DNA of 64,000 nucleotides from Rhodobacterales bacterium (GTDB lineage Bacteria; Pseudomonadota; Alphaproteobacteria; Rhodobacterales; Rhodobacteraceae). Both the position numbers and the translations under genes were made by a program. Of this stretch, positions 38,465 to 55,232 are shown piece after piece (the stretch's first letter is position 1; each line of letters begins with the position of its first letter). Location: assembly GCA_031384005.1 (NCBI GenBank), contig JANNAF010000378.1:1737-65736 (forward strand). The letters run 5' to 3'. The notes under the pieces were generated by a model, which did not search any database, was not told the DNA's origin, and was given only the letters and a program-made list of their open reading frames with translations.

Positions 38465-39496
38465 TCACGGCATATCCCGCCAAACCAGCGATTGCAGACC
38501 GCCGATTTTGGAATTGGACAGATCGCCAAACGGGGTTGCAAATTCCGCAATGTCAGGTGCGTAAAACGTCGTCAGATAGGCATAGGTCCAAGCCAGTTCA
38601 AAACCCTGCAACTTGTCCGATCCATCGAAATAGCTTTGCTTGCTTTTGGCAAGGCTGGTGACCTCGGCCGGATCGGCAAAGGCGGCCAGGGTAAAGCGGA
38701 TGCTGCGGTGCAAACTGCCGTCGCAGGCCTGAAACAACGCATGACCGTCACGCTGCAACAGCATGGCTGCCGGAACCAGCGCGGTCAGGGCGTGCAACTG
38801 GTAATGCAGCGCCAGATCCTTGCGTGCCATCTCCAGCGGCAGGCTGCCGTCGGGGTTGGCGCTGCAGGCGACAAGCTGCACGCTGGCGGCGGCCCAGTCG
38901 ATCATTGCCTTGTCCTGCAAGGTTAGCCCGACCCGCGCCACTGCCAGGGCAGCCCAGGCGCGCAGGTTGTTCTTTTGCGAATTGGTCGGGGCGTCGGTGT
39001 CAAAGAACGTCATGGTGGACCGCGCCAGCCCGGCCAGCCAAGCCTCGATCACGTCAGCGTCGGGGTCATCGCCCACCAAAGGTCGCACCTGATCCCAGGC
39101 GAATGCCAACCCGGACAAACGTGATGGCACCGAAAGATTGGCGTTCATTGACCCCATCTCGCCCAATGCCCCGGCTTTCGCCCAGGCACCCAACCCGGCC
39201 AAAACGCAATCGGCTGCACTCTGGTCTGTGGTTTCCAGCGACGCATTTGCTGCAAGGATCATATCGGTGACAAAGTCATCGACGGGCTTTAACTGGGCAT
39301 TCACGTCTGCATTACTGGTGCTGTCAAACGACGAACGGCTTTTGTCATCGCTTGCATAGCGGCTGCCATGGTCCAGCCTGACCACAGGATCGACCAGACT
39401 GGGGCAGGCAAAAGGCTCTGGCGTTTCTTGCGCCTGTATGGGCATACCGGGCAACAGAGCGCAGGCCAACATGGCCAAGGGTAAAAGGCGGTTCAA
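38465..39496 (-). CDS. algL: Alginate lyase, PL5 AlgL-like (atypical active site)
   Basis: Signal peptide, SRY, NNLRAWAALAV, DGSLPLEMAR..LALHYQ; last gene of the operon. Confidence 0.8.
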   Translation of the reverse strand: MNRLLPLAMLACALLPGMPIQAQETPEPFACPSLVDPVVRLDHGSRYASDDKSRSSFDSTSNADVNAQLKPVDDFVTDMILAANASLETTDQSAADCVLAGLGAWAKAGALGEMGSMNANLSVPSRLSGLAFAWDQVRPLVGDDPDADVIEAWLAGLARSTMTFFDTDAPTNSQKNNLRAWAALAVARVGLTLQDKAMIDWAAASVQLVACSANPDGSLPLEMARKDLALHYQLHALTALVPAAMLLQRDGHALFQACDGSLHRSIRFTLAAFADPAEVTSLAKSKQSYFDGSDKLQGFELAWTYAYLTTFYAPDIAEFATPFGDLSNSKIGGLQSLVWRDMP

Positions 39497-42237
39497 TTCG
39501 ATTCTCCTTGCATATTCAGAAGTTTGACTAGGTCCATGGCGTCTGAATCTCCGGCATCGGCGGCGCGTTGTAGCCAGTTGTGGGCAAGGTCGATCGAGGG
39601 CTCGACGCCCACCCCCAGTGAATATGCCTGTGACAGCAGGACCATGGCTTTGGCATCCCCCGCTTCGGAAGCGCGGATCAGCCAGTCTGTTGCGGTGGCA
39701 ATTTGGGCAGGCTTTCTGGCTGCGTCGCCCAGACGGCGCGCATGTTCGCGCATGGCCGCAGGGCTGCCAGCCTCGGCCGCCTTTTCGTACAGGGCGTCAA
39801 GGTCCAGCCGCATGTCCACCGTCACGGCAAGGGCCGGGTTGCGACGGGTCAGCTCTGCCAACAGTTCGGGGATGTCGGTGGGGTCGCTGCGGGCGATCAG
39901 AGTGACGAATAGATCGGCCGCACGTTCAGCGTCATAGCCCGGGTCCCCGCGCACGCCATAAAGCTTGAGCAGCCGTTGCACTGCGGTCTTGCTGCCCAAG
40001 GCGTTGGACCGTTCATAAAGCGCAACCGCAGTCACCAATCCTTCGGCCCCAAGCTGTTCACGCTGCGTGTCGCCCAAAACGACCATCTGCCACTCGTCGT
40101 GACCAGCCAATTCTGCCGCGATGGCCAGCCAGCGGCGCGCCTGTTGTTCATTCCCCAGTTTTCCCCATACTTTGGCAAAGGCAATCGCCTCGGGGAACGC
40201 GCAGCTCATCACCTCGGTGGCCCGAGCGCGGTAGATTTCGCGTTCAGCCGGATCTTGCAGAAAGGGGATCGCCAGCAGCAACGCGCTGAAATCGCCCCGT
40301 TTTGCGATGGCGCCTGCATATTTGGCAAAGACCGCGTCAGGATTGGGATAGCCGACAGGGTCTGCGATTTGCAGCAGCGTCATAGCTTCGCCGATGCCCT
40401 GGGCTGCCAAGGGCTCCAGCAGGGCAAGGGCTTCGGTACGGTTGGCAAGGTCGGGCTTCTGCAACAGGGCCGCCGCCAGTTTCAGCGCGGCACCGGTATC
40501 CCCCAAGGCAATCGCCTTGCTAAACAGGTCAAACGCCGCGTCTTGCTGGGCCGCAGTTCTGGCGCGCGACAGGTCCAGCGTGGCCGAAGCGGTGGTCACC
40601 TCTGGAATGCCTTTAGCATAGCTGAACCAGAATTCAGCGGTAGAGGGGGCGGCTCCGGTGTCCTTCAGGACTGCCAGCATGTTGGCCAGCGGCGTGGCCC
40701 GTCCGGACAGTGCCTGGGTCTGCAGCGCTGCCATGGCCAGCGGGTCAGCCTTTGCGGTCAGGGCTGCCAACATCGCCGGGGTGAAATCCAGCGACGAGGA
40801 GCCGATGGACGCCTCGACATCTTGCCAATAAGCCACCTCGCGCAGATGCGGGGCATCGGGAGCTTTGCACATGAAGGCTTTTTCGACATCGGTCGCAGGG
40901 GCGACTTCGCCAAGGTTTGAAACCATCTGGATCAGCGGGTCAACGGCGGAATAAAACTGGGCTTCGGTCTGTGCCAGACCCATATCTGCCTGCGACAGGG
41001 CGTGGATGGCGGACGGATCCTGACGTTTGGCAGCTTCGACCCAAAGGGGACGAGCGGCTGCCTGACCTTGCCAGCGGCCCTGATCCTGCAGGATCAGGCC
41101 AGCCTGTTTGGCAAATGCCCATCCGGGGGCATCAGGCAGGGCGGTCAGACGCTGCAGCGCGTCCAGATAGTCCGGGCGCAGGTCGGGCTGAGCTTTCAGC
41201 CGCGCTTCCAAAGAGTTGGAGAGGCGGACCAGAGCGGCATGATCCCCCATGGCCGCGGCCCTTTGATACAGGTCAAGGGCCGCAGGGATGTCTTGTGGGG
41301 CAAGCGCTCCAACCTCCAGAATGCGGCCAAGTGTGACCATGGCATAGGGCAGCCCACCTTGCGCCGCCTTGGTAAGATAGGTCATCAGGACTGAGTTGTC
41401 CTTGACCACCAGTTCGGACTGCATTTGGTATTCCACCACACGCCAGGCCGAGATGGGGTCGCCCAGATCGGCGGCAAATCGGTACCAACGCATCGCCATG
41501 GCGTTGTCGGCGGTCACGATCGTGCCTGCAGTGTATTCGCGGGCGATGCGGGCGATGCGGTCACAGATCAGCGGGTCCATCTGCCCAACCAATGCGCCAA
41601 AGGCCATGGTGACCGCCAGATCGGGTGTGATGTCCCAACCTGCCGGGGCGCTCCCCGCCACACTTAGCCGCGTTAGGGCCAGCAGGGCATCGGCATTTCC
41701 GCCATAGCCCGCCGTCACCAGCAGGTCAGTGCCTCGGGCAGGGTCGCGGGCGATGCCCGTGCCTTCAGTGACAAGGCCCGACAGCACAAACTGCATGCGC
41801 GATGACGCTTCGTCGCTGTTCGCCAGCAGTTTGGCAACCAGCCCGGCGTCGGCCAAGGCGTTGAGCTGTCCTATGGCAATCATCTGGGTGATTTGAGCCA
41901 ACAAAACGTCATCGGCGGTAAATTTTGGCGACGCCTTGGCCAAGGCCAGAATGGCCTTTTGGATGGTCGCGTCCCAGGCCACCGCGTCCATCTCGGCCAG
42001 ACGTCGCAGGTCGCGGGTGATCAGGCTGGTCTCGCGGTCGGGCAAGGTCTTGCCGTCCCATGCGCCCCAAAAGGCGGTCAGTTCGGCATCTGGGGCGCGT
42101 GCCTGACAAATCGGCTGCACCACCATGTCAGGAGGCGCAAAGTCAAGCGTCAGGGTCTGGGTCGTTTGGACTTGCGCCTGCACCGCCGTTGCAGCGCAGA
42201 TCAGAGCAGCGGTTGTTGCCCAACTGAACATGGTCAT
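39493..42237 (-). CDS. Large periplasmic Sel1/TPR repeat protein (possible AlgK-like scaffold)
   Basis: Signal peptide; Sel1 repeats AMRWYRFAADLGD, LYQRAAAMGD, WLQRAADAGD. Confidence 0.75.
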   Translation of the reverse strand: MTMFSWATTAALICAATAVQAQVQTTQTLTLDFAPPDMVVQPICQARAPDAELTAFWGAWDGKTLPDRETSLITRDLRRLAEMDAVAWDATIQKAILALAKASPKFTADDVLLAQITQMIAIGQLNALADAGLVAKLLANSDEASSRMQFVLSGLVTEGTGIARDPARGTDLLVTAGYGGNADALLALTRLSVAGSAPAGWDITPDLAVTMAFGALVGQMDPLICDRIARIAREYTAGTIVTADNAMAMRWYRFAADLGDPISAWRVVEYQMQSELVVKDNSVLMTYLTKAAQGGLPYAMVTLGRILEVGALAPQDIPAALDLYQRAAAMGDHAALVRLSNSLEARLKAQPDLRPDYLDALQRLTALPDAPGWAFAKQAGLILQDQGRWQGQAAARPLWVEAAKRQDPSAIHALSQADMGLAQTEAQFYSAVDPLIQMVSNLGEVAPATDVEKAFMCKAPDAPHLREVAYWQDVEASIGSSSLDFTPAMLAALTAKADPLAMAALQTQALSGRATPLANMLAVLKDTGAAPSTAEFWFSYAKGIPEVTTASATLDLSRARTAAQQDAAFDLFSKAIALGDTGAALKLAAALLQKPDLANRTEALALLEPLAAQGIGEAMTLLQIADPVGYPNPDAVFAKYAGAIAKRGDFSALLLAIPFLQDPAEREIYRARATEVMSCAFPEAIAFAKVWGKLGNEQQARRWLAIAAELAGHDEWQMVVLGDTQREQLGAEGLVTAVALYERSNALGSKTAVQRLLKLYGVRGDPGYDAERAADLFVTLIARSDPTDIPELLAELTRRNPALAVTVDMRLDLDALYEKAAEAGSPAAMREHARRLGDAARKPAQIATATDWLIRASEAGDAKAMVLLSQAYSLGVGVEPSIDLAHNWLQRAADAGDSDAMDLVKLLNMQGESN

Positions 42238-42254
42238 TGCATCCTCCTTCCCTA

Positions 42255-42869
42255 CTATTTGGCGTAGGTGTTTTGCGTGCTGTAGGCTGTGTAGGTCCCG
42301 GCGGTGCCGGAAAAGATCACGGTCACACCTGCGCGCCGCTCCATCGCGATGCCTGGCAATAGGGCCAATGTTTTTCCCCCGGATTGCACTTCGAAATCCA
42401 ACGTCAACGGAGCCTTCAGGCTGACCTGCCGTGACGTGCCGGGGGCGATATCTTTCAGCGCCATGGCCGAGACGGCAGGCACATACAGATCGACCAATGG
42501 CAGGTCCGAGTCGTTGTAGAACACCAGATCTGCCTTGGCCGGGCTGTTGGTAATCATGTCCTGCATCATGTGCATGGCCCCGTCCGCACCAGGTGCAAAG
42601 GTGTAAAAGGATGCCGGGGCGATCTCGCCCTTTCCTTCATGGCTGCCGACCGCGACCGCTATGGGGCCGGGGGCGACCAATAGAAACGGCGTCACACCGC
42701 CCTTGAAATTGTCAAAGGTTGTGCCGTTGATCACGGCCAAAGTCTCACCCGGGGCCACGACCCGCACGAAAGAGGAGGTCGGGTCGGCGGGGGCCTCGTA
42801 CAGGTCTTGGGCGATGGCCTGAATTGGAAGGGCAACGAGGGACAGCAGAAAAAGCGTTTTGATGGTCAT
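42255..42869 (-). CDS. algF: Alginate O-acetyltransferase AlgF
   Basis: Signal peptide plus LYEAPADPTSSFVRV; KADLVFYN. Confidence 0.8.
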   Translation of the reverse strand: MTIKTLFLLSLVALPIQAIAQDLYEAPADPTSSFVRVVAPGETLAVINGTTFDNFKGGVTPFLLVAPGPIAVAVGSHEGKGEIAPASFYTFAPGADGAMHMMQDMITNSPAKADLVFYNDSDLPLVDLYVPAVSAMALKDIAPGTSRQVSLKAPLTLDFEVQSGGKTLALLPGIAMERRAGVTVIFSGTAGTYTAYSTQNTYAK

Positions 42870-44164
42870 GACGGTTCCTTTCCGGAACGGCAGAGCGACA
42901 GCGTCGTGTCAGCACTGACAGGGTGATCGAATGTGACTGAAAGGGTTTGCAGATCGGGGTGCCACAGCGTGCCCAATGATTTGAAGAACCGCCCCGAGGC
43001 TAGAACGCGGTCGCCGCGCTGAATCATCGCGGTGCGGGTGATGCCCGACGCGGTGACAAAGCGGAAATCCGCGCGACGCCCGCCATTCACGCCCAGATCG
43101 GCCAGGATTGAGGCGTCCGGTTGCAGGTTGAGTCCGGTGAGATCAGCCGTCAGGGTGTTCGGATCGGTCTTTTCTACGCTCAGTTGCAGAGTGCACGAAT
43201 CGCTTGCGGCAGCGATCAGCTCTTCCATGGGGTCGGGGCCGAACTGGGCAAGGTTGTTATAGATCGGGTTTTCCCAGATCAAAAACCGTGGTCTGGCCTC
43301 CGCGAAATCGCGTGAGATCAGGTATGACGTGATGGCTCCGAACTGATTGCCCCCGGTGACCGCATAGTTCTGTACTTCCAGCCCGGTGGTTTGCGCCATA
43401 TAGCCCGCAAAGTTTGCCAGTGGCGCGTCGGAAAAAGACGTGCCGACCAGCACAATCTGCGGCGCAACATCGCTCGCAAAGATATCCGCAACGGCGGCGG
43501 GATCGGTGGATTTGACGGTCGTTTGCGCCTGCGCCTCGACCCGTGGCAATTCAGACTGGCAAAAGCTTTGCAAGGTACGGCGCATCGTCGAGAATGAGGC
43601 TGTCACTGGCCCCGGAGTTGTCAGGTATTCTGCCTGCGGCAAGTCGGCATAATACGGTTGCGCCTTGATTTCCGCCGCGATGGCATTGGCAGCGCGCAGC
43701 GCACCGGCCGCAGTCCAATGGAAGTCAGTCTTGAAGAAGGGAGGTGCGTCGGGTTCAGACTTGCTCAATGCCGCCAGAATGTCGGGTGCGATTATGCCCT
43801 GTGCGGACAATCGGGTAATGATATCGTCGTACACCAGGACCGCAGTGGCGCGATCAAACAGGTAGTCCGCGGCCACTGCAGGCAACTGGTCAGGCATGAC
43901 CTCGGCCTTGGTCGGGATGGCAACATAGATCAGGGTTGTGCCCCCGGTCGCCAAAGCGGCGGACAGGGCGGCCATGCGGGCAATCACCGGGTCCTCCATT
44001 GGATGACGCATTCGCAAATCTGCCAAGACGCGGTAAAAGGTGCCATCTTGGCCCTCGACTGACGGCAGGGCCGATTGTGTGGCGGTAAAGGCGCACCCGA
44101 AGGCGGAGGTTTCTGCGGCAATAGGGGTTGCCAGCAATGCGGCAACGGCAAGGTAAGGGATCAT
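42866..44164 (-). CDS. algX: Alginate O-acetyltransferase AlgX-like (SGNH plus C-terminal module)
   Basis: FFKTDFHWT, LVGTSFS, PRFLIWENP; C-terminal extension. Confidence 0.8.
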   Translation of the reverse strand: MIPYLAVAALLATPIAAETSAFGCAFTATQSALPSVEGQDGTFYRVLADLRMRHPMEDPVIARMAALSAALATGGTTLIYVAIPTKAEVMPDQLPAVAADYLFDRATAVLVYDDIITRLSAQGIIAPDILAALSKSEPDAPPFFKTDFHWTAAGALRAANAIAAEIKAQPYYADLPQAEYLTTPGPVTASFSTMRRTLQSFCQSELPRVEAQAQTTVKSTDPAAVADIFASDVAPQIVLVGTSFSDAPLANFAGYMAQTTGLEVQNYAVTGGNQFGAITSYLISRDFAEARPRFLIWENPIYNNLAQFGPDPMEELIAAASDSCTLQLSVEKTDPNTLTADLTGLNLQPDASILADLGVNGGRRADFRFVTASGITRTAMIQRGDRVLASGRFFKSLGTLWHPDLQTLSVTFDHPVSADTTLSLCRSGKEPS

Positions 44165-44898
44165 GGCGCGGCCTTTGTGGCAATGGTTGCGGGGGTGTCC
44201 AAAAGTCGCAACAGGTTTTGTGCGGTAACCTGCGCCGACAGGTTGTCGCTGTTTGCGGCAAGGGTCAGGGCGGCGCGTGCGCCAACATGGTCAAGTGCGG
44301 TGTCGGCAGGGTCAGTGATCAGCACGATGCCCAGTTTCAGCGCGGCGAGAGGATCGTTTTGGCCCGCCATTGCCAGAAAATGCTGCGCCTGCATCAGGTC
44401 GCGGCCAAACGGCACACCTTCGGAATACATCTGACCCAGTACTTGAGCCGCCTTTGCATTGCCGCTGATCGCCTGAATGGTCAGGGCGTTCAGGCTTTGC
44501 TGCAGCAGGCTTGGGCCATAGTCGTCGCCTTCTGCCACCAAAAGCTTGGCCAGCGGGGCCACGGCAAAGGCGCGACCCGTATAAGCGGCGATGGCATAGT
44601 AATGCGCGGCCGCGCCTGCCTTGGCGGGCGGAACGCTGGCTTGCAACAGCTTGCCATAGCGATAGGCCGCCAGCCCGTCGCCTGCATCCGCCAAGGCGCG
44701 CAATTGGCTGGTCGTGACATTTCCACCTGAAACCATGCGTTTGCGTGCGGCCTGCAATGCCGCACTGGGCAGATCGCGGGTATGCGTGACCTTGTTGTCA
44801 AAGACGAAATCCACCTGAACCAGGTCTGCCGGGGGCGGCTCGGCCAGGGCACCAAGAGGCAGCGACAAAAACAGCATGACTATCAACGATTTACCCAT
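44161..44898 (-). CDS. Periplasmic Sel1-repeat protein
   Basis: Signal peptide; LRALADAGDGLAA, GNAKAAQVLGQMYSEGVPFGRD. Confidence 0.7.
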   Translation of the reverse strand: MGKSLIVMLFLSLPLGALAEPPPADLVQVDFVFDNKVTHTRDLPSAALQAARKRMVSGGNVTTSQLRALADAGDGLAAYRYGKLLQASVPPAKAGAAAHYYAIAAYTGRAFAVAPLAKLLVAEGDDYGPSLLQQSLNALTIQAISGNAKAAQVLGQMYSEGVPFGRDLMQAQHFLAMAGQNDPLAALKLGIVLITDPADTALDHVGARAALTLAANSDNLSAQVTAQNLLRLLDTPATIATKAAP

Positions 44899-45994
44899 TG
44901 GAGGCCACCGCGCTGGCGTCACTGCCCGCCAAAGGTGAGGTTGCAGGATTGCTGGGCCACAGGTTGGGGTCGGTCAGGTAACGGACAGGAAATTCCCAAA
45001 TCACCACTTGGGCCGGAGTGTCGCGAAACTCGTTACCCTGCAGATAGGTTTGCATCGGTCTGACCGGGCCCAGACCGACTTCAGCATGGTTCACAACCTC
45101 GCGGCCCAAGGCGCGGGTTAGGGCATCCGCAAAACCCCAATCGGGATTTGCGCTGTAACTGGTGCCGATCAACACGATATCCACCAGCGCCTCGCCAAAA
45201 ATGTCGCCGGGGGCGGCGTCTGCGGTTATGGGGGTCAGCGTTACCTTTTCGGGCAACAGCCCGATCATGGGGGCCAAACTATCCTCGGTGACATAGCGGA
45301 TCAGATCGCCCGTCAGGGGTTTGGCGCTGCCATGTCCGGTGGTATAGGTCAGCGGCCCCTGCGGCAATTCGGCCGCAACCGCACCCGTGGCCTGCGCCGC
45401 GCCAAACGGGGTCCAATGCGTGTCGGTAGCAAAAAACACTGGCTTTTCCTGACCCATCATAGCCTGGCGCAGGTCTATGGCCGTAATCCCTGCGGCACGC
45501 AGGTCTGTCAGGAATGCGGCGTGCAGCCCGGCCATGGCATCCGAAAGCGCCGGGTCGGGTGACTTGGCGCTTTCCACGTCGATCTTGGCGGGCAGCGCCA
45601 AAAGCACCAGTTGCGTCCCTTGTGCCGCCAACAGGGTTTGCACGTTCTTGATCTTCTGGATGGTTGCCCGCAATTCCTCGGCACCAGGCAGTGGCCGCGT
45701 TTCTTCACTGGTGAACAACCAGCCATCACGGCCCACCAAGGCGCCATGGCGCGCCTCTCCCAGCACGGCATACCGGACAGCGCCGATCACGCCAAACGAT
45801 GGGCCAAAATGGGGCAAGGTGGTTTTGTACTGCTGCTCGAAATCGCGGGTTAACCCGCCGGCCAGCAGATCGGCGCGCGGCAGGGTCAGGGGCGTGGGGG
45901 GGCCTGTCAGAACCGACAGGTTTGCAGCAAAGCCATAGCCGAACAAGAGCAGCGGCAAGACAAGGCGAACAGCATGGAAAGGGGGACGCATCAT
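44891..45994 (-). CDS. algJ: Alginate O-acetyltransferase AlgJ-like
   Basis: N-terminal TM, GRDGWLFTSEE, FFATDTHWTPFG, LIGTSYS, VVIWEFPVRY. Confidence 0.85.
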   Translation of the reverse strand: MMRPPFHAVRLVLPLLLFGYGFAANLSVLTGPPTPLTLPRADLLAGGLTRDFEQQYKTTLPHFGPSFGVIGAVRYAVLGEARHGALVGRDGWLFTSEETRPLPGAEELRATIQKIKNVQTLLAAQGTQLVLLALPAKIDVESAKSPDPALSDAMAGLHAAFLTDLRAAGITAIDLRQAMMGQEKPVFFATDTHWTPFGAAQATGAVAAELPQGPLTYTTGHGSAKPLTGDLIRYVTEDSLAPMIGLLPEKVTLTPITADAAPGDIFGEALVDIVLIGTSYSANPDWGFADALTRALGREVVNHAEVGLGPVRPMQTYLQGNEFRDTPAQVVIWEFPVRYLTDPNLWPSNPATSPLAGSDASAVASNG

Positions 45995-45999
45995 GGCAC

Positions 46000-47418
46000 C
46001 TAAAACTGGAAATAGAGAAAGGGAGAGAAGCTTTGTTCGGCCATCTTCATCAGGGTCAAGGTGGCCAGCAGGCTCAGCAAGGCTGCCGGAACCACGGTGT
46101 TGACCCAACCCAAAGCAGCGTCACCGGGGGTCAGATGCGCGGCGGCAAAGCGGTTCAGGCGCGGCTCATAGGTGGCAAAGGCGATGGCAAGCGCAAGGAA
46201 GATAAGGCTTTCCCGCGTGATCTGCAGTGCCACGTCCGGGGCAGTTGCCCAGCCGTTCAGACCGATCATCCCGGCATAGATGCCGCCTGCCTGTACCGGA
46301 TCGACGGCGCGGAACATCACCCAGCCAAGCAGAACGATCAGCAATGTCGAAACGAGGGCGAAGCCGGTTTTGCCCTGCGCCCGACCGGTTGCCCGTTCCG
46401 CCGCCAGCCAGCCGCCATGCCACAGCCCCCACAGCACGAAGGTCATGTTGGCCCCGTGCCACAACCCTCCCAGCAGCATCACCAGCATCAGGTTTACATA
46501 GGTGCGCGCCGCGCCCAACCGATTGCCACCCAAGGGAATGTACAGATAATCGCGCAACCAGACCGATAGGCTGATATGCCAGCGCCGCCAGAACTCGGTG
46601 ATCGAACGGCTGACATAGGGCGTGTCAAAATTGGGCCGGAAGTGAAAGCCGATCATCAGGCCAAGACCGATGGCCATATCGGAATAGCCCGAAAAGTCGA
46701 AATACAGCTGCATCATGTAGCCGACAGCACCCAACCACGACACCACCATTGAGGGATTGTCGGTGGCAAAGGCCAGATTGGCCAAGGGGGCGACCGTATC
46801 CGCCAGCAGCACCTTTTTGGCCAGACCGATGGCAAACAGCGTAGTGCCGTCGATGAACAGGGGCAAGGAGTGGGTGCGATGGGCGAATTGGTGGGTCAAA
46901 TCCTTGAACCGCAGGATGGGTCCGGCAACCAGTTGCGGGAACAGTGCGATAAAGGCAGCAAAGTCGAAAAAGCGGGTCGTCGCCTCGGCATCCTTGCGGT
47001 AAACATCGACCAGATAGCTGACGGCGTGAAACACATAGAATGACACGCCAATCGGCAGGATCAGCCGCCAATGCACGCCAAGACCTGCGGCGTCAGTGCC
47101 CCAAAGCGCGGCAAAACTGTCGATAAAGAAATTCAGGTACTTGAACACGCCCAGCACCGCCAGACAGCCCGTCAGCCCGATGATCAGATAGGCCCGCGCG
47201 GCAGATTGGCTGCGCGCTGTACCGATGCGGCGGCCCAGGGCGTATGTCCACAGCGTCGTTGCAAACAGCAGCGCCAGGTAATCGACCCGCCACCAGCCGT
47301 AAAAGGCGTAAGAGCCGATCAGAATAGTAACCGATCTGAACCGCATAGGGGTCAGGTAGTACACGGCCAAAAATAGCGGCAGAAACAGAAACAGAAAGGT
47401 TTCAGAAGAAAAGACCAT
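46000..47418 (-). CDS. algI: MBOAT alginate O-acetyltransferase AlgI
   Basis: MVFSSETFLFLFLP, PQLVAGPI, DFSGYSDMAIG, SITEFWRRWHISLS, GLWHGA, SPFLYFQF. Confidence 0.93.
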   Translation of the reverse strand: MVFSSETFLFLFLPLFLAVYYLTPMRFRSVTILIGSYAFYGWWRVDYLALLFATTLWTYALGRRIGTARSQSAARAYLIIGLTGCLAVLGVFKYLNFFIDSFAALWGTDAAGLGVHWRLILPIGVSFYVFHAVSYLVDVYRKDAEATTRFFDFAAFIALFPQLVAGPILRFKDLTHQFAHRTHSLPLFIDGTTLFAIGLAKKVLLADTVAPLANLAFATDNPSMVVSWLGAVGYMMQLYFDFSGYSDMAIGLGLMIGFHFRPNFDTPYVSRSITEFWRRWHISLSVWLRDYLYIPLGGNRLGAARTYVNLMLVMLLGGLWHGANMTFVLWGLWHGGWLAAERATGRAQGKTGFALVSTLLIVLLGWVMFRAVDPVQAGGIYAGMIGLNGWATAPDVALQITRESLIFLALAIAFATYEPRLNRFAAAHLTPGDAALGWVNTVVPAALLSLLATLTLMKMAEQSFSPFLYFQF

Positions 47419-48878
47419 CAGAATTTCCCTTCATCGGGGCAAACGGGGATAGGGTCAAACTGTAGACGGGTGGGGCCATGGCTGCGGCGTTCCTCCAGCC
47501 AGGCGATGGTGCGGGGCGACAGGTCGCCCGAAAACAGGCGGGGCAACTGGCCCTCCAGATCATTGCCGGTCACGGTCAGGCTGCCCGCAGTGGCACCGCG
47601 CAACCCCTCGTGATTGCCGGCAAACTGATTGCCGGTGACTTTCACGCTGGCCTTGTCTCCTTGGCCGCGCAGCAGGATCCCCGAGCCCAGATTGTCCAGA
47701 ATGGCATTGCCGGCGATGGCAACGCGCCCGGTTCCAGACAAGGATATGCCAGAGCCACCGCCCAGCACGGTCATATTCCCCGTAACGTCGGCGCATTCCA
47801 CGTTGTCCAGCCTGATGCCGCTGGTGTCCTGACCCGCAAGAACATTGCCTGACAAGGTGATGCGCCGGCTGGCCTGATCGGCCGAAATGCCCACCGGTGC
47901 CCCCAGGATGATGTTGTCAGCGACCAGCGTCTGAACCGAGCCGCTGGTAATGCGGATGGCAGCAGTGGTTGCGCCGTTCAGCAGGTTGTCGGTCACAGTG
48001 GTGTTGACGGAATGGGCAATCATGATGCCGCTGCCAGTCATGGTGTTGGCCGTTGCCGTTGCAGACCGAGTGCTGATCAGTGCCAATGCCCTGACATCGG
48101 TAAAGTGGCTTGCAGAGATGATCGGCGGTGTCGCAGGGGGCTCCAAGCCGGAATTGTCAACAGACACCCCGCCAAAACGCGGCGTTTCCCCAAAGCCCAA
48201 ATGGTCAAAATTTGCATTCGATACGGTCAGGCTGCCCCTGCCCGCCGTCAGCACAAAGGGGCGAAAGCCCGGCTCGCCGACATTGGCGGCCTGGCTGCCG
48301 CTGACCGATGCGCCGTCAATATTCAGCCAGCCGAGGTTTGCCAGAAAACTGCCATCCGCCCGGCTGAGGATCAGACTGTCGCCAGGTGATAGCGTAAGCC
48401 CCGCATCCGACCACAAGACCAGAGCGCGGGTCAAGGTCACGCCCTGTGGGCCACCGGTGACAAATGCGGCCGCAGCAGAGGATGCCATCAAGGACTGCAA
48501 TTCGGCCAGAGTGACATACCCGCCACGCAACAAGACCACCTGATGCACGCCAGCTGCCTGAGCACGCGCCAAGGCAAGATGGTCCTTGGCCCCGGTCTGT
48601 ACGGCGATTTGTGCCAGCAAAAGGCGCATGTCCACCAACTCAATCACCGCCGCTCCGCCGGTCACAAACGTGGTTTGGCTTGGGGGCAGGGTGATGCCCG
48701 CCGCGGTCAGGCCGAACCGGGCCTTCAATGCCTGTGCGACCGTCTGGGCCTCGGTTACGCTTTGGGACATTGTCAATGCGGCCAGCGCCGCATCGATTTC
48801 GGCACCGCGCGGCGTGGCTTGGGCCGCAGTTGCAACCAGCATGGCCAGCATTGGCCACATTAGGGGGCACCTAATCAT
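47418..48878 (-). CDS. algG: AlgG-like periplasmic beta-helix protein (lacks the DPHD epimerase motif)
   Basis: LILSRADGSFLANLG, FRPFVL, HLGFG resemble the AlgG N-half; beta-helix C-half; operon position. Confidence 0.65.
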   Translation of the reverse strand: MIRCPLMWPMLAMLVATAAQATPRGAEIDAALAALTMSQSVTEAQTVAQALKARFGLTAAGITLPPSQTTFVTGGAAVIELVDMRLLLAQIAVQTGAKDHLALARAQAAGVHQVVLLRGGYVTLAELQSLMASSAAAAFVTGGPQGVTLTRALVLWSDAGLTLSPGDSLILSRADGSFLANLGWLNIDGASVSGSQAANVGEPGFRPFVLTAGRGSLTVSNANFDHLGFGETPRFGGVSVDNSGLEPPATPPIISASHFTDVRALALISTRSATATANTMTGSGIMIAHSVNTTVTDNLLNGATTAAIRITSGSVQTLVADNIILGAPVGISADQASRRITLSGNVLAGQDTSGIRLDNVECADVTGNMTVLGGGSGISLSGTGRVAIAGNAILDNLGSGILLRGQGDKASVKVTGNQFAGNHEGLRGATAGSLTVTGNDLEGQLPRLFSGDLSPRTIAWLEERRSHGPTRLQFDPIPVCPDEGKF

Positions 48879-50274
48879 GATGCACCAAATCCGTGGATTT
48901 CGAGTAGTTGCCGGTGGACAGCAACAGTGCCTGAAGATCGGTCGATTGGGTATTGGTCAGGCTGACCTGAGTGTCCTTGTCGATCGCCAACATCGCGCCG
49001 AGCCCAATGGATTGACCCGGTTGCGCGTGATCCTCAAGGTAGCTGCCCTCGCCCTTGACGACCGACAAAAAGGTGGCCCCCACGCCGTGCCCGTTGATCT
49101 GCGCCGTCGATCCTGGACGCACTGTCAACATTTCCAGTTTGTATCCCGCTTCCGATACGATGTCCTCGATCCCGCCCCATGACTTGGTGGCATAGGCGTG
49201 GCTGATCACTTCGGTGCGGTTACTGGATTTCAGGGCCTCGACCACCTGTTTGACCTTTTGGGCATGGGCACGATTGGTCACCAACAAGGCGTCCTTCGTA
49301 TCAACGACGATCACGTCATCCATGCCCACCACGACCACCAACCGCCCATCCGACCGGATCAGCGAATTTGTCGTGTCCATCGCCATGACGTCGCCCGAGG
49401 TGACATTGCCATCGCCGGATTTGGCGTTGACGTCATAGACGGCGGCCCAGGCACCGATATCATCCCATTTCACCGCGATCGGAGCCAGGCAAACGGCAGG
49501 GGAGTGTTCGAACACCGCCCGCTCTGTCGGCTCGTTGCGGGCCTTGCTGAAAGCGTGCAACTCCAGCGTTGTGCCATGGGCGTCTTGCGTCGCCCCAAGC
49601 ACAGCGGCAGCCACTGCGGCATAGGTGTCAGGTTCCAGTCGTCTGAATTCAGATGCGATCGTGGCCGCGCTGAACAGGCTAATGCCGGACGCCCAATAGG
49701 ACTTGCCGCCGTCAATCAGCTGTTGGGCGACTTGCACTTCGGGCTTTTCGACAAAGCGGGCGACGTGGTGCAGGCCATAATGTAAGCCCGTCGCTCCTCC
49801 GTCGATGATGTAGCCATAACCGGTTTCCGCATAAAGCGGTTTGATGCCAAAGGTGACGATTCGACCTTCTGCGGCAGCATCGGCCATGCCCAGAACAGTT
49901 GCATTCAGATCGCCAAGGATGATGTGATCGGCGGGCAAAACCAGCAACAGCGCCTCTGGGTCACTTTGCAACACAGTCAACGCGGCGGCCAGAACGGCAG
50001 GGCCGGTGTTGCGTCCAACCGGTTCACCGATGATCTGACCACCGCATTGAATTTCGTCCAGTTGCTGATGGACAAGGTCGGTGTGGCGATGATTGGTCAC
50101 AACAATCGGGTCATGAAACTGCCGCCCGCGATGGCGCTGCACCGTGGTTTGAAAATAAGTCAGGCTGCCCTTGCCGCTGACGGGCTGAAACTGCTTTGGC
50201 TGGTCGATCCGGGACATCGGCCACAATCTCGACCCCATGCCACCACACAGAATGAGGGGATATATCTTGCGCAT
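48871..50274 (-). CDS. algA: Mannose-1-phosphate guanylyltransferase / PMI-like bifunctional protein
   Basis: ILCGGMGSRLWPMSR..PKQF, EPVGRNTGPA, FVEKP, WDDIGAW; degenerate cupin C-terminus. Confidence 0.88.
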   Translation of the reverse strand: MRKIYPLILCGGMGSRLWPMSRIDQPKQFQPVSGKGSLTYFQTTVQRHRGRQFHDPIVVTNHRHTDLVHQQLDEIQCGGQIIGEPVGRNTGPAVLAAALTVLQSDPEALLLVLPADHIILGDLNATVLGMADAAAEGRIVTFGIKPLYAETGYGYIIDGGATGLHYGLHHVARFVEKPEVQVAQQLIDGGKSYWASGISLFSAATIASEFRRLEPDTYAAVAAAVLGATQDAHGTTLELHAFSKARNEPTERAVFEHSPAVCLAPIAVKWDDIGAWAAVYDVNAKSGDGNVTSGDVMAMDTTNSLIRSDGRLVVVVGMDDVIVVDTKDALLVTNRAHAQKVKQVVEALKSSNRTEVISHAYATKSWGGIEDIVSEAGYKLEMLTVRPGSTAQINGHGVGATFLSVVKGEGSYLEDHAQPGQSIGLGAMLAIDKDTQVSLTNTQSTDLQALLLSTGNYSKSTDLVHHD

Positions 50275-50275
50275 C

Positions 50276-51328
50276 TCACAACTTTCCCGAAACTTGTTCA
50301 AACCATTGACGCACAATCGCAATCTGCTCGCCCAGCCAGCCGTCGTCCCGGATCAGACGCACCTGGACAGGTTGGCCAACCAAGGACGGAGCCAAAGTGG
50401 TTGCTGGCATCAGCAACGCGTTTTGGCCCGTGTTCGACAGGGCCGAGGCAGTGACGGTGGCGCCATCGGGCAGGGTCAGTTCAATCTGGTCACCGCGCGC
50501 CAGATCAAAGGCGAGATCGGGCGGAATGACGGCCCGCACGATCGCCACCGCATCTGGCGTGGTCAGTTGCAAGATGGGTTCGCCCGCCAGAACCGTGGAC
50601 CCTACGCGCAGGCCAAGGCTGGTCGCGGTACAGTCACACGGCATGGTCAGGCTCAGGACATCCCCGTTTGACGTGGTGATGGCCAGCGCGACTTGGCCCA
50701 TTGGTGCGGACGTGTCCAAAAAGGCGATCTGGCCGCTGGCGGTGGCACGCAAAGTCTCGCCCTGCAGGGCGACGATGCCCAACTCGGGCAGCATTTGCAC
50801 AAAGCTGCGCTGATAGATCAGCGCACCCGCCACGCCAATCAGCGCCACAGCCAGCACGGCCAGTGCAGTACCTTGCAGATATCTGCGGCCAGTGGCCGAT
50901 GTCGTGTCCTTGGCAGGCTTGGGCGGTGTGGTGCCCGCAACGCCGATAACATGGCCCAGCGACACCAGATCCCTGGCAATATACGCGTTCAGAATGTGGC
51001 GCAGTTGCGGTAGGTGCGGCCCCGACGGGTGGGTGAAATCAAGACCGATTTCGCCCTTGCCCTCGGCTAGCTCGCGTATATTTGCCAGCACCACCAGCGT
51101 TACGGAAAAGCCGTCAAAGTCAAAGACCAACCTTACGATGCGCGGCACTCCGGATGCCGATACCCCCAACAGCCCAACGACATAGGCGCTGACCAGCGAC
51201 AAGCCATGGCCCCGGAACTGTCTCCCGTCGATTATCGCCGTGAATGGCAAGTCAACTACGGCATGATCGTTGCCTTCGCTTAGCGAGGCGATCGGTGCGG
51301 TATTCAGAACGAGCGGTGCGGTTTCCAT
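50276..51328 (-). CDS. alg44: Alg44-like co-polymerase (degenerate PilZ, TM, membrane-fusion-like domain)
   Basis: LRHILNAYIARDLVSLGHVI, TM helix, TMPCDC motif; directly after alg8. Confidence 0.75.
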   Translation of the reverse strand: METAPLVLNTAPIASLSEGNDHAVVDLPFTAIIDGRQFRGHGLSLVSAYVVGLLGVSASGVPRIVRLVFDFDGFSVTLVVLANIRELAEGKGEIGLDFTHPSGPHLPQLRHILNAYIARDLVSLGHVIGVAGTTPPKPAKDTTSATGRRYLQGTALAVLAVALIGVAGALIYQRSFVQMLPELGIVALQGETLRATASGQIAFLDTSAPMGQVALAITTSNGDVLSLTMPCDCTATSLGLRVGSTVLAGEPILQLTTPDAVAIVRAVIPPDLAFDLARGDQIELTLPDGATVTASALSNTGQNALLMPATTLAPSLVGQPVQVRLIRDDGWLGEQIAIVRQWFEQVSGKL

Positions 51329-51348
51329 GAGAGATGCCTTTCCAGACG

Positions 51349-52803
51349 TCAAAGCAGGCCAGAGATGATCGTGACGCCGAGCGTGAGCCAGCCAAGGGTC
51401 AGAACATGGATGAAGGTTGATATGCGGTCAGACAGCGTGACAGCGCGCCGCGCGCCACTGGTTTGCCGGGTCCAGCGTTGCCGGTCCAACCGGAACAGGA
51501 CAAAGCTTTTGACAGCCGCGCCCACGATCTGGCCAAAGTACAAAAGGAACGGATAGCGGATCGGAAAGGCCGTGCCGCGAAACAGCGACAGCGCCAGACA
51601 AAACGCATAACGGGTGAACAGCACCCAGGCGAGATAGACCACCAGAATGCCCGGCCCGACAAAGGCAGCCGTCAGCGCAACCCCTATTGGTCCCGCCAGC
51701 GTGGTCCAGATCGTCAACCGCTGATCCAGCAGCGACCACCAGGTAAAGGCCCCAATCCGCGACACCGGCAACGCCAGCGCCCGCCCATTGGTGCGCATCA
51801 TGTTGCCATACCAGCGCACCATCAGCGTCGTGGCCGAGGCGACAAAGCCGGGCAAAGGTTGCCGCTCCATCGACAGGGTGCGGACATCTGGCAGGTACAG
51901 CATCCGATATCCGGACTTCAGCAGCCAAAACCACGTGGACTTGTCGTCGCCGGTCAGAAAGTTCACGCGGCCCAGCCGCCAATGTTCCAGATGGTCGCTG
52001 TGTACCAGGGCAATAAAGGCCGGATCGGTGGCCAGATCGGCGCGAAACACCGACATGCGCCCGGTCAGCGTCAGCACATGCCCCGCCAGCGCCATTGACG
52101 ACATCAATACGTGGCGTTGAGTAAAACGCAGGTCGAACCAGTCGGCAAAGGTCGGGGCGTCGGGGATTTCGGCCTGTTCGTCGGTGGTCAGCGCGCCAAC
52201 TGTAGTATCGCTGAACCAAGGTGCCGACTGCGCGACGATGTCGACCGGAACACAGCTGTCCCCATCGACAAAAATCACGATGTCACGCCACGACGGTGCC
52301 TGCCCCGCGATCATCCTCAGACCTTTGGCCAAGGCGTCACGCTTGCCGGTTCCGGCGATCTGATCGACAACCAGCGTCACACGTGACATGTCTGCCCGCA
52401 TCTGGGCAAAGATCGTGCTGATCAGCCGCGCGTCCGCTCCCTCGACCACCGAGGCCACGACGCTCGCCCCGCCAGTGGCATTGGCGGCTGCGGCAAAGAT
52501 CGACTGATAAACCCGCGTCGTAACCTCGGGCTCGATCTTGAAACTGGTCACCAAAAAGAAGGCATGCGGCGCCGTGGTGCGCGCATTGTACAGGGAAACA
52601 ACGCGGCGCTTCATGGCCGGAAAGGCCACGCGCTGATACCAAATGGCCCGCACAAAGTTGGTACCAGCCCACGTGTACCGCCACAGCCCCACAACCCCAA
52701 GCACGAACAGGGCGCCATGGGCATGGGCCAGCGACCCCGGCGGGATGGCCAGTGCAATCAGCGCCAGCACCGTCAGATAGAGGGTGTGACCAAGGACCTG
52801 CAT
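51349..52803 (-). CDS. alg8: Alginate polymerase, GT2 glycosyltransferase
   Basis: GTGKRDAL, VDGD, LTLTGRMS, FLTGDDKSTWFWL, LMVRWYGNMMR. Confidence 0.9.
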   Translation of the reverse strand: MQVLGHTLYLTVLALIALAIPPGSLAHAHGALFVLGVVGLWRYTWAGTNFVRAIWYQRVAFPAMKRRVVSLYNARTTAPHAFFLVTSFKIEPEVTTRVYQSIFAAAANATGGASVVASVVEGADARLISTIFAQMRADMSRVTLVVDQIAGTGKRDALAKGLRMIAGQAPSWRDIVIFVDGDSCVPVDIVAQSAPWFSDTTVGALTTDEQAEIPDAPTFADWFDLRFTQRHVLMSSMALAGHVLTLTGRMSVFRADLATDPAFIALVHSDHLEHWRLGRVNFLTGDDKSTWFWLLKSGYRMLYLPDVRTLSMERQPLPGFVASATTLMVRWYGNMMRTNGRALALPVSRIGAFTWWSLLDQRLTIWTTLAGPIGVALTAAFVGPGILVVYLAWVLFTRYAFCLALSLFRGTAFPIRYPFLLYFGQIVGAAVKSFVLFRLDRQRWTRQTSGARRAVTLSDRISTFIHVLTLGWLTLGVTIISGLL

Positions 52804-52804
52804 G

Positions 52805-54124
52805 TTACCAGCAGATGCCCTGATAGGTGCCATGCGACACGATCCCGGCCTGCAACCGCGTCAAATCGACCATCGGCTGATCCTCCATCGCGCGCGACAG
52901 GGGGCCCTTTGCCTCGGCATAGCTGTTGCCAACCAGGATGACACCTGCGTGGTCGATCAGAGCCTCGATCGTGGGCACCATGCGGTCACGCAAGTCAGGC
53001 ACCACATCATTGCCACGCCCGGCGGCATGCGCGTCCAACCCGTGGGAAATGCTGACATTGGGGTCATAGACCTGCACATCCAGCCCCTGCGCGATCAACC
53101 GTGCTGCCAGTTCGGCCAGCGGGCTTTCCCGCAGATCATCGGTGCCGGGCTTGAAGCTGATACCGACCAGACCAACCGACGTTTCGCCGGTATCCGTCAC
53201 CATTTTGGCGGCACGTTCGATCTGATCTTCGTTGGCCTGCAGGACCGCCCCCATCAGCGGGGCCGCCACATCCTTGGTGCGGGCCAATTGCCGCAGCGCG
53301 CGCACATCCTTGGGCAGGCACGATCCACCAAAGGCAAACCCCGGGCGCATGAAGTGGGACGAGATGTTGACCTTGTCATCGCTGCACAGCAGTTGCATCA
53401 CCAACTGGCCATCCAGCCCGCAGGCCTTGGCAATATTGCCGATCTCATTGGCAAAGGTCACTTTGACCGCGCGCCACGAATTCGAGGTGTATTTGACCAT
53501 TTCCGCGGTGCGCAGATCGACCTGATGCGCAATGCAGGGCATGTCGCGGTTCAAAAGGTTCAGCAGCGCAAATGTCGGCTCATCCAGCGCGCCAAAAACA
53601 ATCAGTCCTGGGTCATAGTAATCTGCAATCGCCGTGCTTTCGCGCAGGAATTCCGGGTAATAGCCCACACCGAAATCAACCCCGGCCTTCTTGCCTGACG
53701 CCGCCTCCAGCAAAGGCACGCAAACCGATTCCATGGTGCCGGGCACGATGGTTGACCTGATGATGACCGAATGGAAGGTGGCCTTTGCCGCTATGGCCCG
53801 CCCGATGATGCCACATACCTCGGACACATAGGCCAGCCCGACCGATCCGTCGCTGTTGCTGGGCGTGCCGACGCAGACATAGCTGGCGTCCGTATCGCGG
53901 ACCGCCGCATCGGCATCCAGCGTCGCGGTCAGTGAACCAGATGAAACCGCAGCATTTATCAGGGGCTCAAGTCCGTTCTCAACGATTGGAGACTGACCTG
54001 CGTTGATCATCGCCACCCGTTCGGCAACAATATCCACGGCAACAACCCGGTGCCCGTCTTTGGCCAGACACGCCGCCGAGACGACCCCGACATACCCGAT
54101 CCCGAACACTGATATACTAACCAT
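52805..54124 (-). CDS. algD: GDP-mannose 6-dehydrogenase
   Basis: GIGYVG, PEFLRESTA, PGFAFGGSCLPKD, TDDLRESP, C-terminal GICW. Confidence 0.92.
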   Translation of the reverse strand: MVSISVFGIGYVGVVSAACLAKDGHRVVAVDIVAERVAMINAGQSPIVENGLEPLINAAVSSGSLTATLDADAAVRDTDASYVCVGTPSNSDGSVGLAYVSEVCGIIGRAIAAKATFHSVIIRSTIVPGTMESVCVPLLEAASGKKAGVDFGVGYYPEFLRESTAIADYYDPGLIVFGALDEPTFALLNLLNRDMPCIAHQVDLRTAEMVKYTSNSWRAVKVTFANEIGNIAKACGLDGQLVMQLLCSDDKVNISSHFMRPGFAFGGSCLPKDVRALRQLARTKDVAAPLMGAVLQANEDQIERAAKMVTDTGETSVGLVGISFKPGTDDLRESPLAELAARLIAQGLDVQVYDPNVSISHGLDAHAAGRGNDVVPDLRDRMVPTIEALIDHAGVILVGNSYAEAKGPLSRAMEDQPMVDLTRLQAGIVSHGTYQGICW

Positions 54125-54752
54125 TTACGCCGCTCCACTCTGATTTATATGCATATTTCCCCGCATCCCTGTGGGGCAGAATCTGGTCCCTTGATGGCGC
54201 GCAAACCTCTCTTGACCACCACCAGCTATGGTGGTGCGACGCCCCGAAAGGGCATTCGCGGCAATGCGATCAAGGGGCTTGGCAGCCAGTTAACAAACCA
54301 ATGTTCATCGAGGTTAACCGTGGACCATTATGCAGGTGCAGAAACTGATCTATGTGCGGAAAGTCGGCCTTCGCCGCTCACGAAGTCGCGATATCGCCGT
54401 GAACAGGCGACTTCTTCGTATTTTGGCAATCTTTTTGACGGTCAGACCCGACATCGAACGCCGCACTGATTCGGCTTTGCCTCATGTCTGCGATACCAGG
54501 ACTTAGCGTCGTACCGCCAAAAAAAGGTGCCCAGCCGTTTGGCCTGTCGCGGCAAAACAGCCCGAAAACGCCAACCCAACAGCAGGCAAACAGACCGGCG
54601 GGGCGAAAGTCACCGGTGGAAATTTTGCTCTTGGCCCCCCCCGGCGCCACGTTCAGCGCGACTGCGGCCAACGTGAGCACATCCCAGATCAGTACGAACT
54701 GATGACAAGGCTGCCATAACCTGCGGACCGAACTTCGTCAGAGGAAATGTAC

Positions 54753-55232
54753 ATGACCAGCACCACGCACAGAATTGCAGACATTGGGCCGCAACCGCAG
54801 TCGTTCGACATTGAACGCGCAACGGTCCAGAATGAAAATTACCGTTCCGTCGCCTGGAGCGGTCGCTATTTGCAGGTGACACTGATATCGATCCCGGTAG
54901 GCGGCGACATTGGCCTAGAAGCACATCCCGAGACCGATCAGTTCCTGCGCCTGGAAGCGGGCATCGGTCGGGCACAAATGGGCGTGGCAAAGAACGACCT
55001 TACCTTTGATCAGCAAGTGTCCGACGGCTGGTGCGTTCTGGTTCCCGCAGGAGCGTGGCACAACATCACCAATACCGGGACCGAGCCGATGCAGGTCTAT
55101 GCTATATATGCCCCAGCCCATCATGCGCCCGACAAGGTACAATCGACCGAGGCAGTTGCCATGGCCGACAAGGCTGATGAGCCTGCCGCGTGGTCCGTTC
55201 AGCCAAAGCACGTGTCCGACAAGCACGGCTGA
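54753..55232 (+). CDS. Cupin domain protein
   Basis: IGLEAHPETDQFLR...VPAGAWHNITN cupin motifs. Confidence 0.85.
   Translation: MTSTTHRIADIGPQPQSFDIERATVQNENYRSVAWSGRYLQVTLISIPVGGDIGLEAHPETDQFLRLEAGIGRAQMGVAKNDLTFDQQVSDGWCVLVPAGAWHNITNTGTEPMQVYAIYAPAHHAPDKVQSTEAVAMADKADEPAAWSVQPKHVSDKHG

Follow-up and report, generated by a model that had tools for sequence, protein, structure and literature searches.

An alginate-type operon in a Rhodobacterales genome

Nearly all that is known of alginate biology comes from Pseudomonas and Azotobacter. Here we analyse an operon of alginate type found in a Rhodobacterales bacterium. The DNA under study, the window hereafter, is a stretch of 64,000 nucleotides (positions 1,737 to 65,736 of contig JANNAF010000378.1, GenBank assembly GCA_031384005.1), on a contig (C508) of a metagenome-assembled genome (MAG) that comprises 535 contigs and is 88.9% complete. 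Between positions 38465 and 54124, on the minus strand, it holds twelve uninterrupted open reading frames (ORFs), in the order algD-alg8-alg44-algA-algG-algI-algJ-Sel1(253)-algX-algF-Sel1(914)-algL. They fill exactly the span of an original prediction, made from the letters alone, of twelve tightly packed and intact genes in this order, and the ORF list and family searches agree with that proposal gene by gene. Overlaps of 4 bp join alg8 to alg44, Sel1-253 to algX, algX to algF and Sel1-914 to algL; algG and algI overlap by 1 bp, and a single gap, of 17 bp, is found elsewhere in the operon. The starts of the longest ORFs are probably placed too far upstream for some genes, alg8 likely beginning at 52803 and algA at 50274. 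Scanning the operon for promoters and terminators gave sites no more numerous than in shuffled sequence.

The Pseudomonas order, algD-8-44-K-E-G-X-L-I-J-F-A, was re-derived from a canonical reference locus of the same phylum (its ORFs follow this very order, with an AlgE-family porin 3 kb from alg8) and from the PAO1 row of the S1 Table of PMC7112194. Comparison of the ORF list with the canonical locus bears out the view that the genes have been shuffled: in the window algA stands fourth, algI and algJ come before algX, algF lies behind algX and algL is last. Identity to the canonical locus, as measured with tblastn, amounts to 47% for AlgD, 42% for Alg8, 21% for Alg44, 28% for AlgX and 24% for AlgL, and to 47%, 38% and 37% for AlgI, AlgJ and AlgA.

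Precursor supply and polymerization

The first gene, algD (52805..54124, on the minus strand like all genes of the operon), encodes a GDP-mannose 6-dehydrogenase of 439 residues. It matches the Pseudomonas aeruginosa enzyme (1mfz) end to end at 423 bits, the highest-scoring UDP-glucose dehydrogenase reaching 242 bits, and it retains the context of the catalytic cysteine, GGSCLPKD. By this comparison AlgD is a GDP-mannose enzyme, predicted to supply GDP-mannuronate. A ranking of NCBIfam families had brought up a UDP-glucose dehydrogenase, and with it a polyglucuronate; this idea is countered by the comparison with PDB structures and by the adjacent gene for a mannose-1-phosphate guanylyltransferase.

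That gene, algA (48871..50322, an ORF of 483 residues), combines an intact guanylyltransferase with a degenerate C-terminal cupin of the phosphomannose isomerase (PMI) type. The product scores 390 bits, over the cut-off, for TIGR01479, the equivalog of the bifunctional enzyme, while the Pfam PMI domain stays under its cut-off. The histidine-rich metal motif of the isomerase is gone here and throughout the clade to which the window operon belongs; it is present in relatives of the Microvirga type. This loss had not been part of the original prediction. A second, canonical gene for the isomerase/guanylyltransferase is found on another contig (G000:C386:40988-41314).

Alg8 (51349..52833; 494 residues in the ORF, 484 from position 52803) is a polysaccharide synthase of glycosyltransferase family 2 (GT2; Pfam Glyco_tranf_2_3). 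Its DGD, TGDDKS and RW columns are invariant among 12 relatives with identities down to 42%. It is 42–43% identical to the Alg8 of genomes that have alg8 3 kb from an AlgE porin, and its relatives carry the JGI and NCBI names Alg8 or mannuronan synthase; searches of the PDB, with the single sequence and with a profile, gave nothing useful. The next gene (50276..51352) encodes an Alg44-like co-polymerase of 358 residues, made of an N-terminal PilZ fold, one transmembrane helix and a periplasmic domain resembling membrane-fusion proteins. Taken as a single sequence it has no match in Pfam or the PDB. A clade profile built from 30 relatives matches the PilZ domain of P. aeruginosa Alg44 (4rt0/4xrn, E ~1e-9), and its C-terminal half matches membrane-fusion proteins; it is because of these matches, together with the single transmembrane helix, that we assign the Alg44 architecture.

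The PilZ domain has departed from the canon at the very places where cyclic di-GMP (c-di-GMP) binds. In the window RxxxR has become N-D-H-A-V and DxSxxG has become G-L-S-L-V-S, and the whole clade carries an (E/D)-H-P signature and G/S-x-x-S in place of the canonical motifs, whereas the distant Alg44 proteins of Microvirga and Rhizobium retain R-Q-H-x-R and D-W-S-x-G-G. Both binding motifs being lost, activation of the synthase is probably independent of c-di-GMP.

The acetylation set

Four genes would add acetyl groups to the polymer. AlgI (46000..47418; 472 residues, Pfam MBOAT) is an acetyl-group transporter whose WHG histidine is invariant in all 42 members aligned. AlgJ (44891..46108) is a membrane-anchored SGNH-like O-acetyltransferase (Pfam ALGX, 222 bits) in which homology begins near residue 40 of the ORF; its D-x-H and GTS-Y-S residues are kept in 37 members out of 37. 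AlgX (42866..44164; 432 residues, Pfam ALGX, 173 bits), a periplasmic SGNH-like O-acetyltransferase, has its D-H-S triad in the window. Finally, AlgF (42255..42869; 204 residues, Pfam AlgF) is encoded behind algX, a position conserved across loci. A complete AlgI/J/F/X machinery with its catalytic residues, as known from the Pseudomonas and Azotobacter type of system, is therefore found here, and the expectation that polymerase and acetylation motifs would be intact is upheld by residues that are invariant in the family alignments.

The fate of the AlgX triad across 47 loci is instructive. It is kept in all 36 loci that have algI and lost in all 11 that have none of algI, algJ and algF. The loci are related, so that this is to be read as a clean internal control and not as a matter for a statistical test. 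In those eleven (L039, L041, L042, L049, L051, L053, L056, L062, L063, L065 and L074) the catalytic histidine and serine of AlgX have given way to D-R-D/E and the like, the gene itself being retained. With its partners present AlgX would then serve as an acetyltransferase, and without them it would persist as a scaffold; in the sub-type devoid of I, J and F it looks like a natural pseudo-enzyme with a scaffold role only.

A beta-helix without epimerase motif and an altered lyase

The algG-like gene (47418..48878) encodes a periplasmic right-handed beta-helix of 486 residues (Pfam Beta_helix and NosD). Only residues 101–241, in the N-terminal half of the window protein, align with AlgG (4nk6/4ozy). 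The DPH motif of the epimerase is found in none of 58 clade members, the sole conserved feature being an asparagine ladder. As the epimerase motif is missing, the exported polymer should be an acetylated polymannuronate without guluronate made in the periplasm.

The last gene, algL (38465..39496; 343 residues, Pfam Alginate_lyase), belongs to polysaccharide lyase family 5 (PL5) and has Smlt1473 (7fhz) as its best PDB match. It reads N-N-L-R-A-W where N-N-H is expected, and it keeps the Arg...Tyr pair. The leucine is present in 13 of 13 clade members; the AlgL of distant loci retains N-N-H. Replacement of this histidine by alanine strongly lowers the activity of a PL5 enzyme, and natural variants with glutamine or lysine at the same position are known from ocean metagenomes (PMC11890756); beside these we have seen no description of a leucine variant. 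Alignments of the clade thus agree with the original prediction that the regulatory (PilZ), epimerase and lyase motifs are altered. Since these alterations are conserved across the clade and the genes are under purifying selection (see below), they do not amount to decay.

Sel1 proteins and the route across the outer membrane

Instead of the algK and algE of a Pseudomonas operon, the window has two genes for secreted proteins of the Sel1 type. The smaller one (Sel1-253; 44161..44922), not a lipoprotein, has no Pfam match as a single sequence and was assigned from a clade profile, which matches Sel1 proteins at E 1e-8 and AlgK (7ula_B) only marginally, at E 0.02. In each locus found to have both, its gene directly precedes algX. 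A prediction from alignments of a complex between Sel1-253 (residues 28–253) and AlgX (residues 18–432) scored 0.01, which gives no verdict, and it is used here neither way. The larger protein (Sel1-914; 39493..42237) matches Sel1 families in Pfam and Sel1 structures in the PDB. Its AlphaFold2 model, built from 18 sequences, has a mean predicted local distance difference test score (pLDDT) of 88 and a predicted template modelling score (pTM) of 0.67, and shows about 50 helices and no strands, an all-alpha solenoid of Sel1 and tetratricopeptide (TPR) repeats and no beta-barrel; Sel1/TPR solenoids are also its best Foldseek matches. The cysteine of a lipobox is absent from both proteins. Judged by family and fold, the AlgK/AlgE module as such is absent from the operon.

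A porin might of course be encoded elsewhere. No match to the AlgE family (PF13372) over its cut-off was found in five other carriers of the operon: Thioclava litoralis, Cypionkella psychrotolerans, Agrobacterium albertimagni, a complete Roseibium MAG and Tabrizicola soli. The lone match in these five genomes (E 0.02, 14.8 bits) is interrupted by internal stop codons. In the same five carriers and in a congener of the window organism the operon ends with Sel1-914 followed by algL, and beyond algL no gene, candidate exporter or other, is common to the six loci compared. PF13372 occurs in 107 of 401 genomes of a phylum sample, and because the family is so widespread its presence is no marker of alginate synthesis; its absence from carriers is the sole aspect used here. 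Strong porins of this family do exist in some Alphaproteobacteria (genomes G700 and G128), and one such genome belongs to the same taxonomic family as the window. As no relative of Alg8 is encoded in G700, the porin family occurs in the class apart from the operon. The genome of the window also has three Wza-like OPX genes, with no link to the operon.

With no outer-membrane channel in sight, one may ask whether the polymer leaves the cell at all. It could stay periplasmic or cell-bound, as an osmoprotectant or a capsule-like layer, and this would fit the lack of an AlgE-family porin in six genomes, the lack of a barrel or lipid anchor in either Sel1 protein, and an operon to which nothing conserved is attached downstream. 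We nevertheless find it distinctly unlikely. A secreted RTX enzyme active on polysaccharides, linked to the operon (see below), is sensible only if its substrate is extracellular, and the operon still has a periplasmic lyase, as do systems that need to keep the periplasm clear. Secretion without a known cognate porin has alphaproteobacterial precedents in CrdASC and BgsBA. Curdlan synthesis by CrdASC, mixed-linkage glucan synthesis by BgsBA and cellulose synthesis of the BcsK type all combine a GT2 synthase of the inner membrane with one or more periplasmic partners and co-encode no known cognate beta-barrel, BcsK being a TPR protein without the barrel of BcsC. These systems make neutral glucans, and are not known to have an acetylation set, a lyase or a beta-helix partner.

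A linked beta-helix/RTX protein

Convergent with algL, on the plus strand (36200..38347), lies the gene of a secreted protein made of a beta-helix followed by RTX repeats. Its start was placed near 36200 by alignment with homologues, and not at 35585, since starting with the long ORF would add about 205 residues that have no counterpart in nine aligned homologues. In at least 10 loci of Rhodobacterales, a homologue of its N-domain is encoded close to algD, on the upstream side. The N-domain has no match in Pfam or the PDB by sequence. Its model is a right-handed beta-helix (pLDDT 79, pTM 0.81), and the closest structures are capsule or O-antigen depolymerases, such as the Klebsiella K1 lyase (7w1c) and phage tailspikes (4ru4 and 4y9v among these matches), at E ~1e-12 to 1e-13. 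The AlgE4 and AlgE6 epimerase modules and alginate lyases of the PL6 and PL31 families rank lower, at E ~1e-4. Its conserved motifs are NKGDGGNGYG, DTRHAV.FASYTSA and RDINFHGG. To go by its modelled fold, the protein probably depolymerizes or otherwise modifies the polymer outside the cell, this fold being unable to separate a lyase from an epimerase.

Such a protein brings to mind the AlgE1–7 enzymes of Azotobacter, and with them the idea that the final product is a true alginate in which mannuronate and guluronate are mixed, epimerization taking place outside the cell. The layout, a beta-helix followed by calcium-binding repeats, is that of the A and R modules of AlgE, the A-modules of AlgE4 and AlgE6 are among the structural matches, and the link of homologues with algD recurs in those ten or more loci. 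Yet the depolymerases match far better than AlgE does, and the N-domain has no sequence match to AlgE modules or to any Pfam family. Furthermore, NKGDGGNGYG and RDINFHGG differ from the epimerase motif YG(F/I)DPH(D/E), and the flanks examined of the Rhizobiales loci of the clade gave no match to the N-domain, that of Devosia (L036) being with the C-terminal RTX part only. A mixed alginate made in this way is, in our view, unlikely.

Selection, distribution and evolution

Compared with its orthologue in a congener (G010, whose proteins are 66–92% identical), the operon has a ratio of nonsynonymous to synonymous substitution rates (dN/dS) between 0.07 and 0.25 in each of the twelve genes, with dS values of 0.7–1.2. 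An operon with such ratios in all its genes is not decaying, and the general decay that had been named as a possible refutation of the original prediction is not seen. A silent or decaying relic of horizontal transfer might have been suspected from the patchy distribution of Alg8 relatives (found in 7 of 24 congeners and, across the class, in 19 of 401 genomes sampled) and from the loss of several motifs deemed catalytic. All twelve frames are intact, however; the residues that replace the lost motifs are conserved across families, and the relative of this operon in Dinoroseobacter shibae is transcribed and regulated. To this one can add, with the caution that carry-over of DNA is possible and that the hint of transcription is weak for that reason, contigs from an RNA library, which fall on five of the genes. 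In one ice metatranscriptome library these contigs, of 167–281 nt and with 0–3 differences, map to Sel1-914, algJ, algA, alg8 and algD; the parts of the operon left uncovered in this run (X11) are evidence of nothing. The relic is thus already disfavoured, and we regard it as highly improbable. Metagenomes of freshwater sediment, sediment and soil, from three studies, also contain near-identical DNA.

In a pattern scan in which each species was represented by a single genome, Alg8 relatives came up in at least 577 genomes, and the best 80 of these are nearly all Alphaproteobacteria. With tblastn, the gene order of the window (D-8-44-A-G-I-J-Sel1-X-F-Sel1, plus L where the flank reaches) was found in Paracoccaceae, Roseobacteraceae, Rhizobiaceae, Devosiaceae, Phyllobacteriaceae and Stappiaceae, in dozens of genomes of Rhodobacterales and Rhizobiales. 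A shorter sub-type, lacking I, J and F, is met as well, among others in loci of the Roseobacter group. The count of 19 among 401 genomes given above refers to Alg8 relatives at E <= 1e-30 in an even sample of the class, the genome of the window being counted; that of 7 among 24 refers to the other genomes of its genus.

A quick maximum-likelihood tree of Alg8 separates the clade of the window (67 rows) from the Microvirga and canonical types across a branch with full support (100 in the Shimodaira–Hasegawa-like approximate likelihood ratio test, SH-aLRT), and the Alg8 phylogeny, which had been among the suggested checks, puts the Alg8 of the window in a distinct clade. The tree requires at least 2–3 losses of I, J and F; being a quick search with a midpoint root, it supports no claim of donor or direction. 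Rhodobacteraceae bacterium CCMM004 has both kinds of operon, without I/J/F (L056) and with them (L067), on different contigs. The alphaproteobacterial type of operon also turns up (L070) in a MAG that bears the name 'uncultured Exiguobacterium' (Bacillota); the contig concerned was most likely binned wrongly. Judged by these genome comparisons, the operon is not a rarity of the window genome, it is a widespread and catalogued alphaproteobacterial variant.

Neighbouring genes

On the algD side of the operon, a gene for a small cupin protein (54747-55232, plus strand) is divergent from algD and is followed by one for an esterase of the poly-beta-hydroxybutyrate depolymerase family (55430-56677, plus strand). 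In the congener G010 (locus L102) a homologue of the cupin protein is likewise encoded next to the operon, just past its algL end. Farther on, at 57484-58576 of the minus strand, two overlapping ORFs match the Pfam Catalase profile at positions 173–355 and 104–165, probably one frameshifted gene or an assembly error.

Relation to described systems

That related operons might already figure in genomic surveys had been anticipated, and this proved right: carriers are many in public genomes, the operon has been named in Dinoroseobacter papers, and a survey of 2020 includes 'atypical' alginate operons that are rearranged and have lost algKE (Bundalovic-Torma et al., 2020; PMC7112194). The tables of this survey place the Alg8 of D. 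shibae in a clade of its own (G7). In one row that carries Alg8 clade 7, which we take to be the D. shibae operon, AlgK, AlgE, AlgX, AlgL, AlgI, AlgJ and AlgF are given as not detected; the genes detected in the D. shibae operon are AlgD, Alg8, Alg44, AlgG and AlgA, with no AlgK/AlgE. In D. shibae itself, Dshi_1895-1904 is described as an 'alginate gene cluster' of ten genes, the transcription of which responds to acyl-homoserine lactones (AHL) and to plasmid content (PMC9426580, PMC6473078), the 'alginate-biosynthesis operon' being transiently activated by AHL (PMC6473078). As far as consulted, these papers and PMC7112194 give no analysis of motifs, Sel1 proteins or product. The window operon resembles the D. 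shibae cluster in being of alginate type and in belonging to the Rhodobacterales, a likeness drawn from published descriptions, and would differ from these ten genes in its full acetylation set. In the literature on alginate or alg8 in Rhodobacteraceae, Alphaproteobacteria, Roseobacter and Rhizobium we found no analysis of the lost motifs, of the two Sel1 proteins or of the absence of the porin.

A second type of alphaproteobacterial alg8 locus is met in Microvirga and some Rhizobium (L077-L090), in one case on a plasmid, pR87027a. It shares with the window the algD-alg8-alg44-algA lead. It differs in retaining RxxxR/DxSxxG in PilZ, the histidine motif of the isomerase and N-N-H in AlgL, in having its AlgG-like match inside an ORF of 1240–1265 residues, and in an Alg8 that groups with the canonical type, across the branch with an SH-aLRT of 100.

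Set beside the operon of Pseudomonas and Azotobacter, that of the window has in common the precursor enzymes, the Alg8/Alg44 pair (PilZ, transmembrane helix and membrane-fusion domain), AlgI, AlgJ, AlgX and AlgF, a beta-helix like AlgG and a PL5 lyase. It differs, besides its order, in having secreted Sel1 proteins of 253 and 914 residues in the place of the AlgK lipoprotein and the AlgE barrel, and in missing the c-di-GMP motifs of PilZ, the DPHD of AlgG, the histidine of AlgL and the isomerase motif of AlgA. The match with the alginate system would accordingly extend to precursor supply, polymerization and acetylation, and three features that define the Pseudomonas type appear to be wanting: a PilZ domain that binds c-di-GMP, the AlgK/AlgE pair and a catalytic AlgG.

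Interpretation and significance

We propose that the twelve genes specify all the inner-membrane and periplasmic parts of an alginate-type machine that depends on an Alg8/Alg44 synthase, with an O-acetylated polymannuronate as its likely product; we give this reading a probability of roughly 0.7. It follows the original prediction of a distinct synthase-dependent system for acetylated polymannuronate or a variant of it, which finds support in the precursor enzymes, the synthase, the acetylation set and the PL5 lyase, the product being predicted. In this scheme, the AlgA-like guanylyltransferase and AlgD would make GDP-mannuronate, the mannose-6-phosphate isomerase activity coming from the second, canonical gene elsewhere in the genome. 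Alg8 and the Alg44-like protein would polymerize and translocate poly-beta-1,4-mannuronate, which AlgI, AlgJ, AlgF and AlgX would O-acetylate in the periplasm. The AlgG-like beta-helix, the two Sel1 proteins and AlgX may form a protective periplasmic conduit, while AlgL would clear stray polymer. Outside the cell, the secreted beta-helix/RTX enzyme probably trims or modifies the product. What the data show directly is which genes are present, their homologies, the state of their motifs, conservation and selection; the identity of the polymer, the roles as scaffold, independence from c-di-GMP and export are deduced from these.

Several observations weigh against this proposal. The AlgG-like protein, AlgF and both Sel1 proteins have no tblastn match to the canonical locus, so that their roles are assigned from fold, family and position, and AlgF, at 34.5 bits, barely exceeds its Pfam cut-off of 34.4. 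The lyase step may work differently or not at all, because the change from histidine to leucine falls on a residue whose replacement by alanine strongly lowers PL5 activity. No PF13372 (AlgE) porin over the family cut-off was found in the genome of the window, a negative that is tempered by its completeness of 88.9%, the porin possibly sitting in the unassembled part. With no outer-membrane exporter identifiable, secretion stays inferred. Finally, in the body of literature mentioned above we found no isolation of the polymer from any carrier.

A bolder view, which we put forward tentatively as possible, and as less probable than the proposal it extends, is that the clade has evolved a distinct machine. 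The Sel1 solenoid and its small Sel1 companion would replace AlgK and AlgE and hand the polymer over to an outer-membrane route other than AlgE; a switch other than c-di-GMP would act through a re-purposed PilZ domain, with its E-H-P signature; and a pure acetylated polymannuronate would undergo remodelling solely in the extracellular space, through a dedicated beta-helix enzyme exported in the manner of type I secretion systems.

This type of operon is common in marine, freshwater and soil Alphaproteobacteria, and among its carriers are cultured and genetically tractable organisms: Dinoroseobacter shibae, Cypionkella psychrotolerans, Thioclava litoralis, Tabrizicola soli, Agrobacterium albertimagni and Rhizobium rosettiformans. 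If our reading is right, they would be a likely natural source of acetylated polymannuronate free of guluronate. The system would also be a test case for the export of a polymer without a barrel in a synthase-dependent pathway, and a natural experiment on the role of the PilZ domain of Alg44 when it does not bind c-di-GMP. In the same way, its natural pseudo-enzymes, AlgG and, in the sub-type without I, J and F, AlgX, would separate the scaffold roles of these proteins from their catalytic ones.

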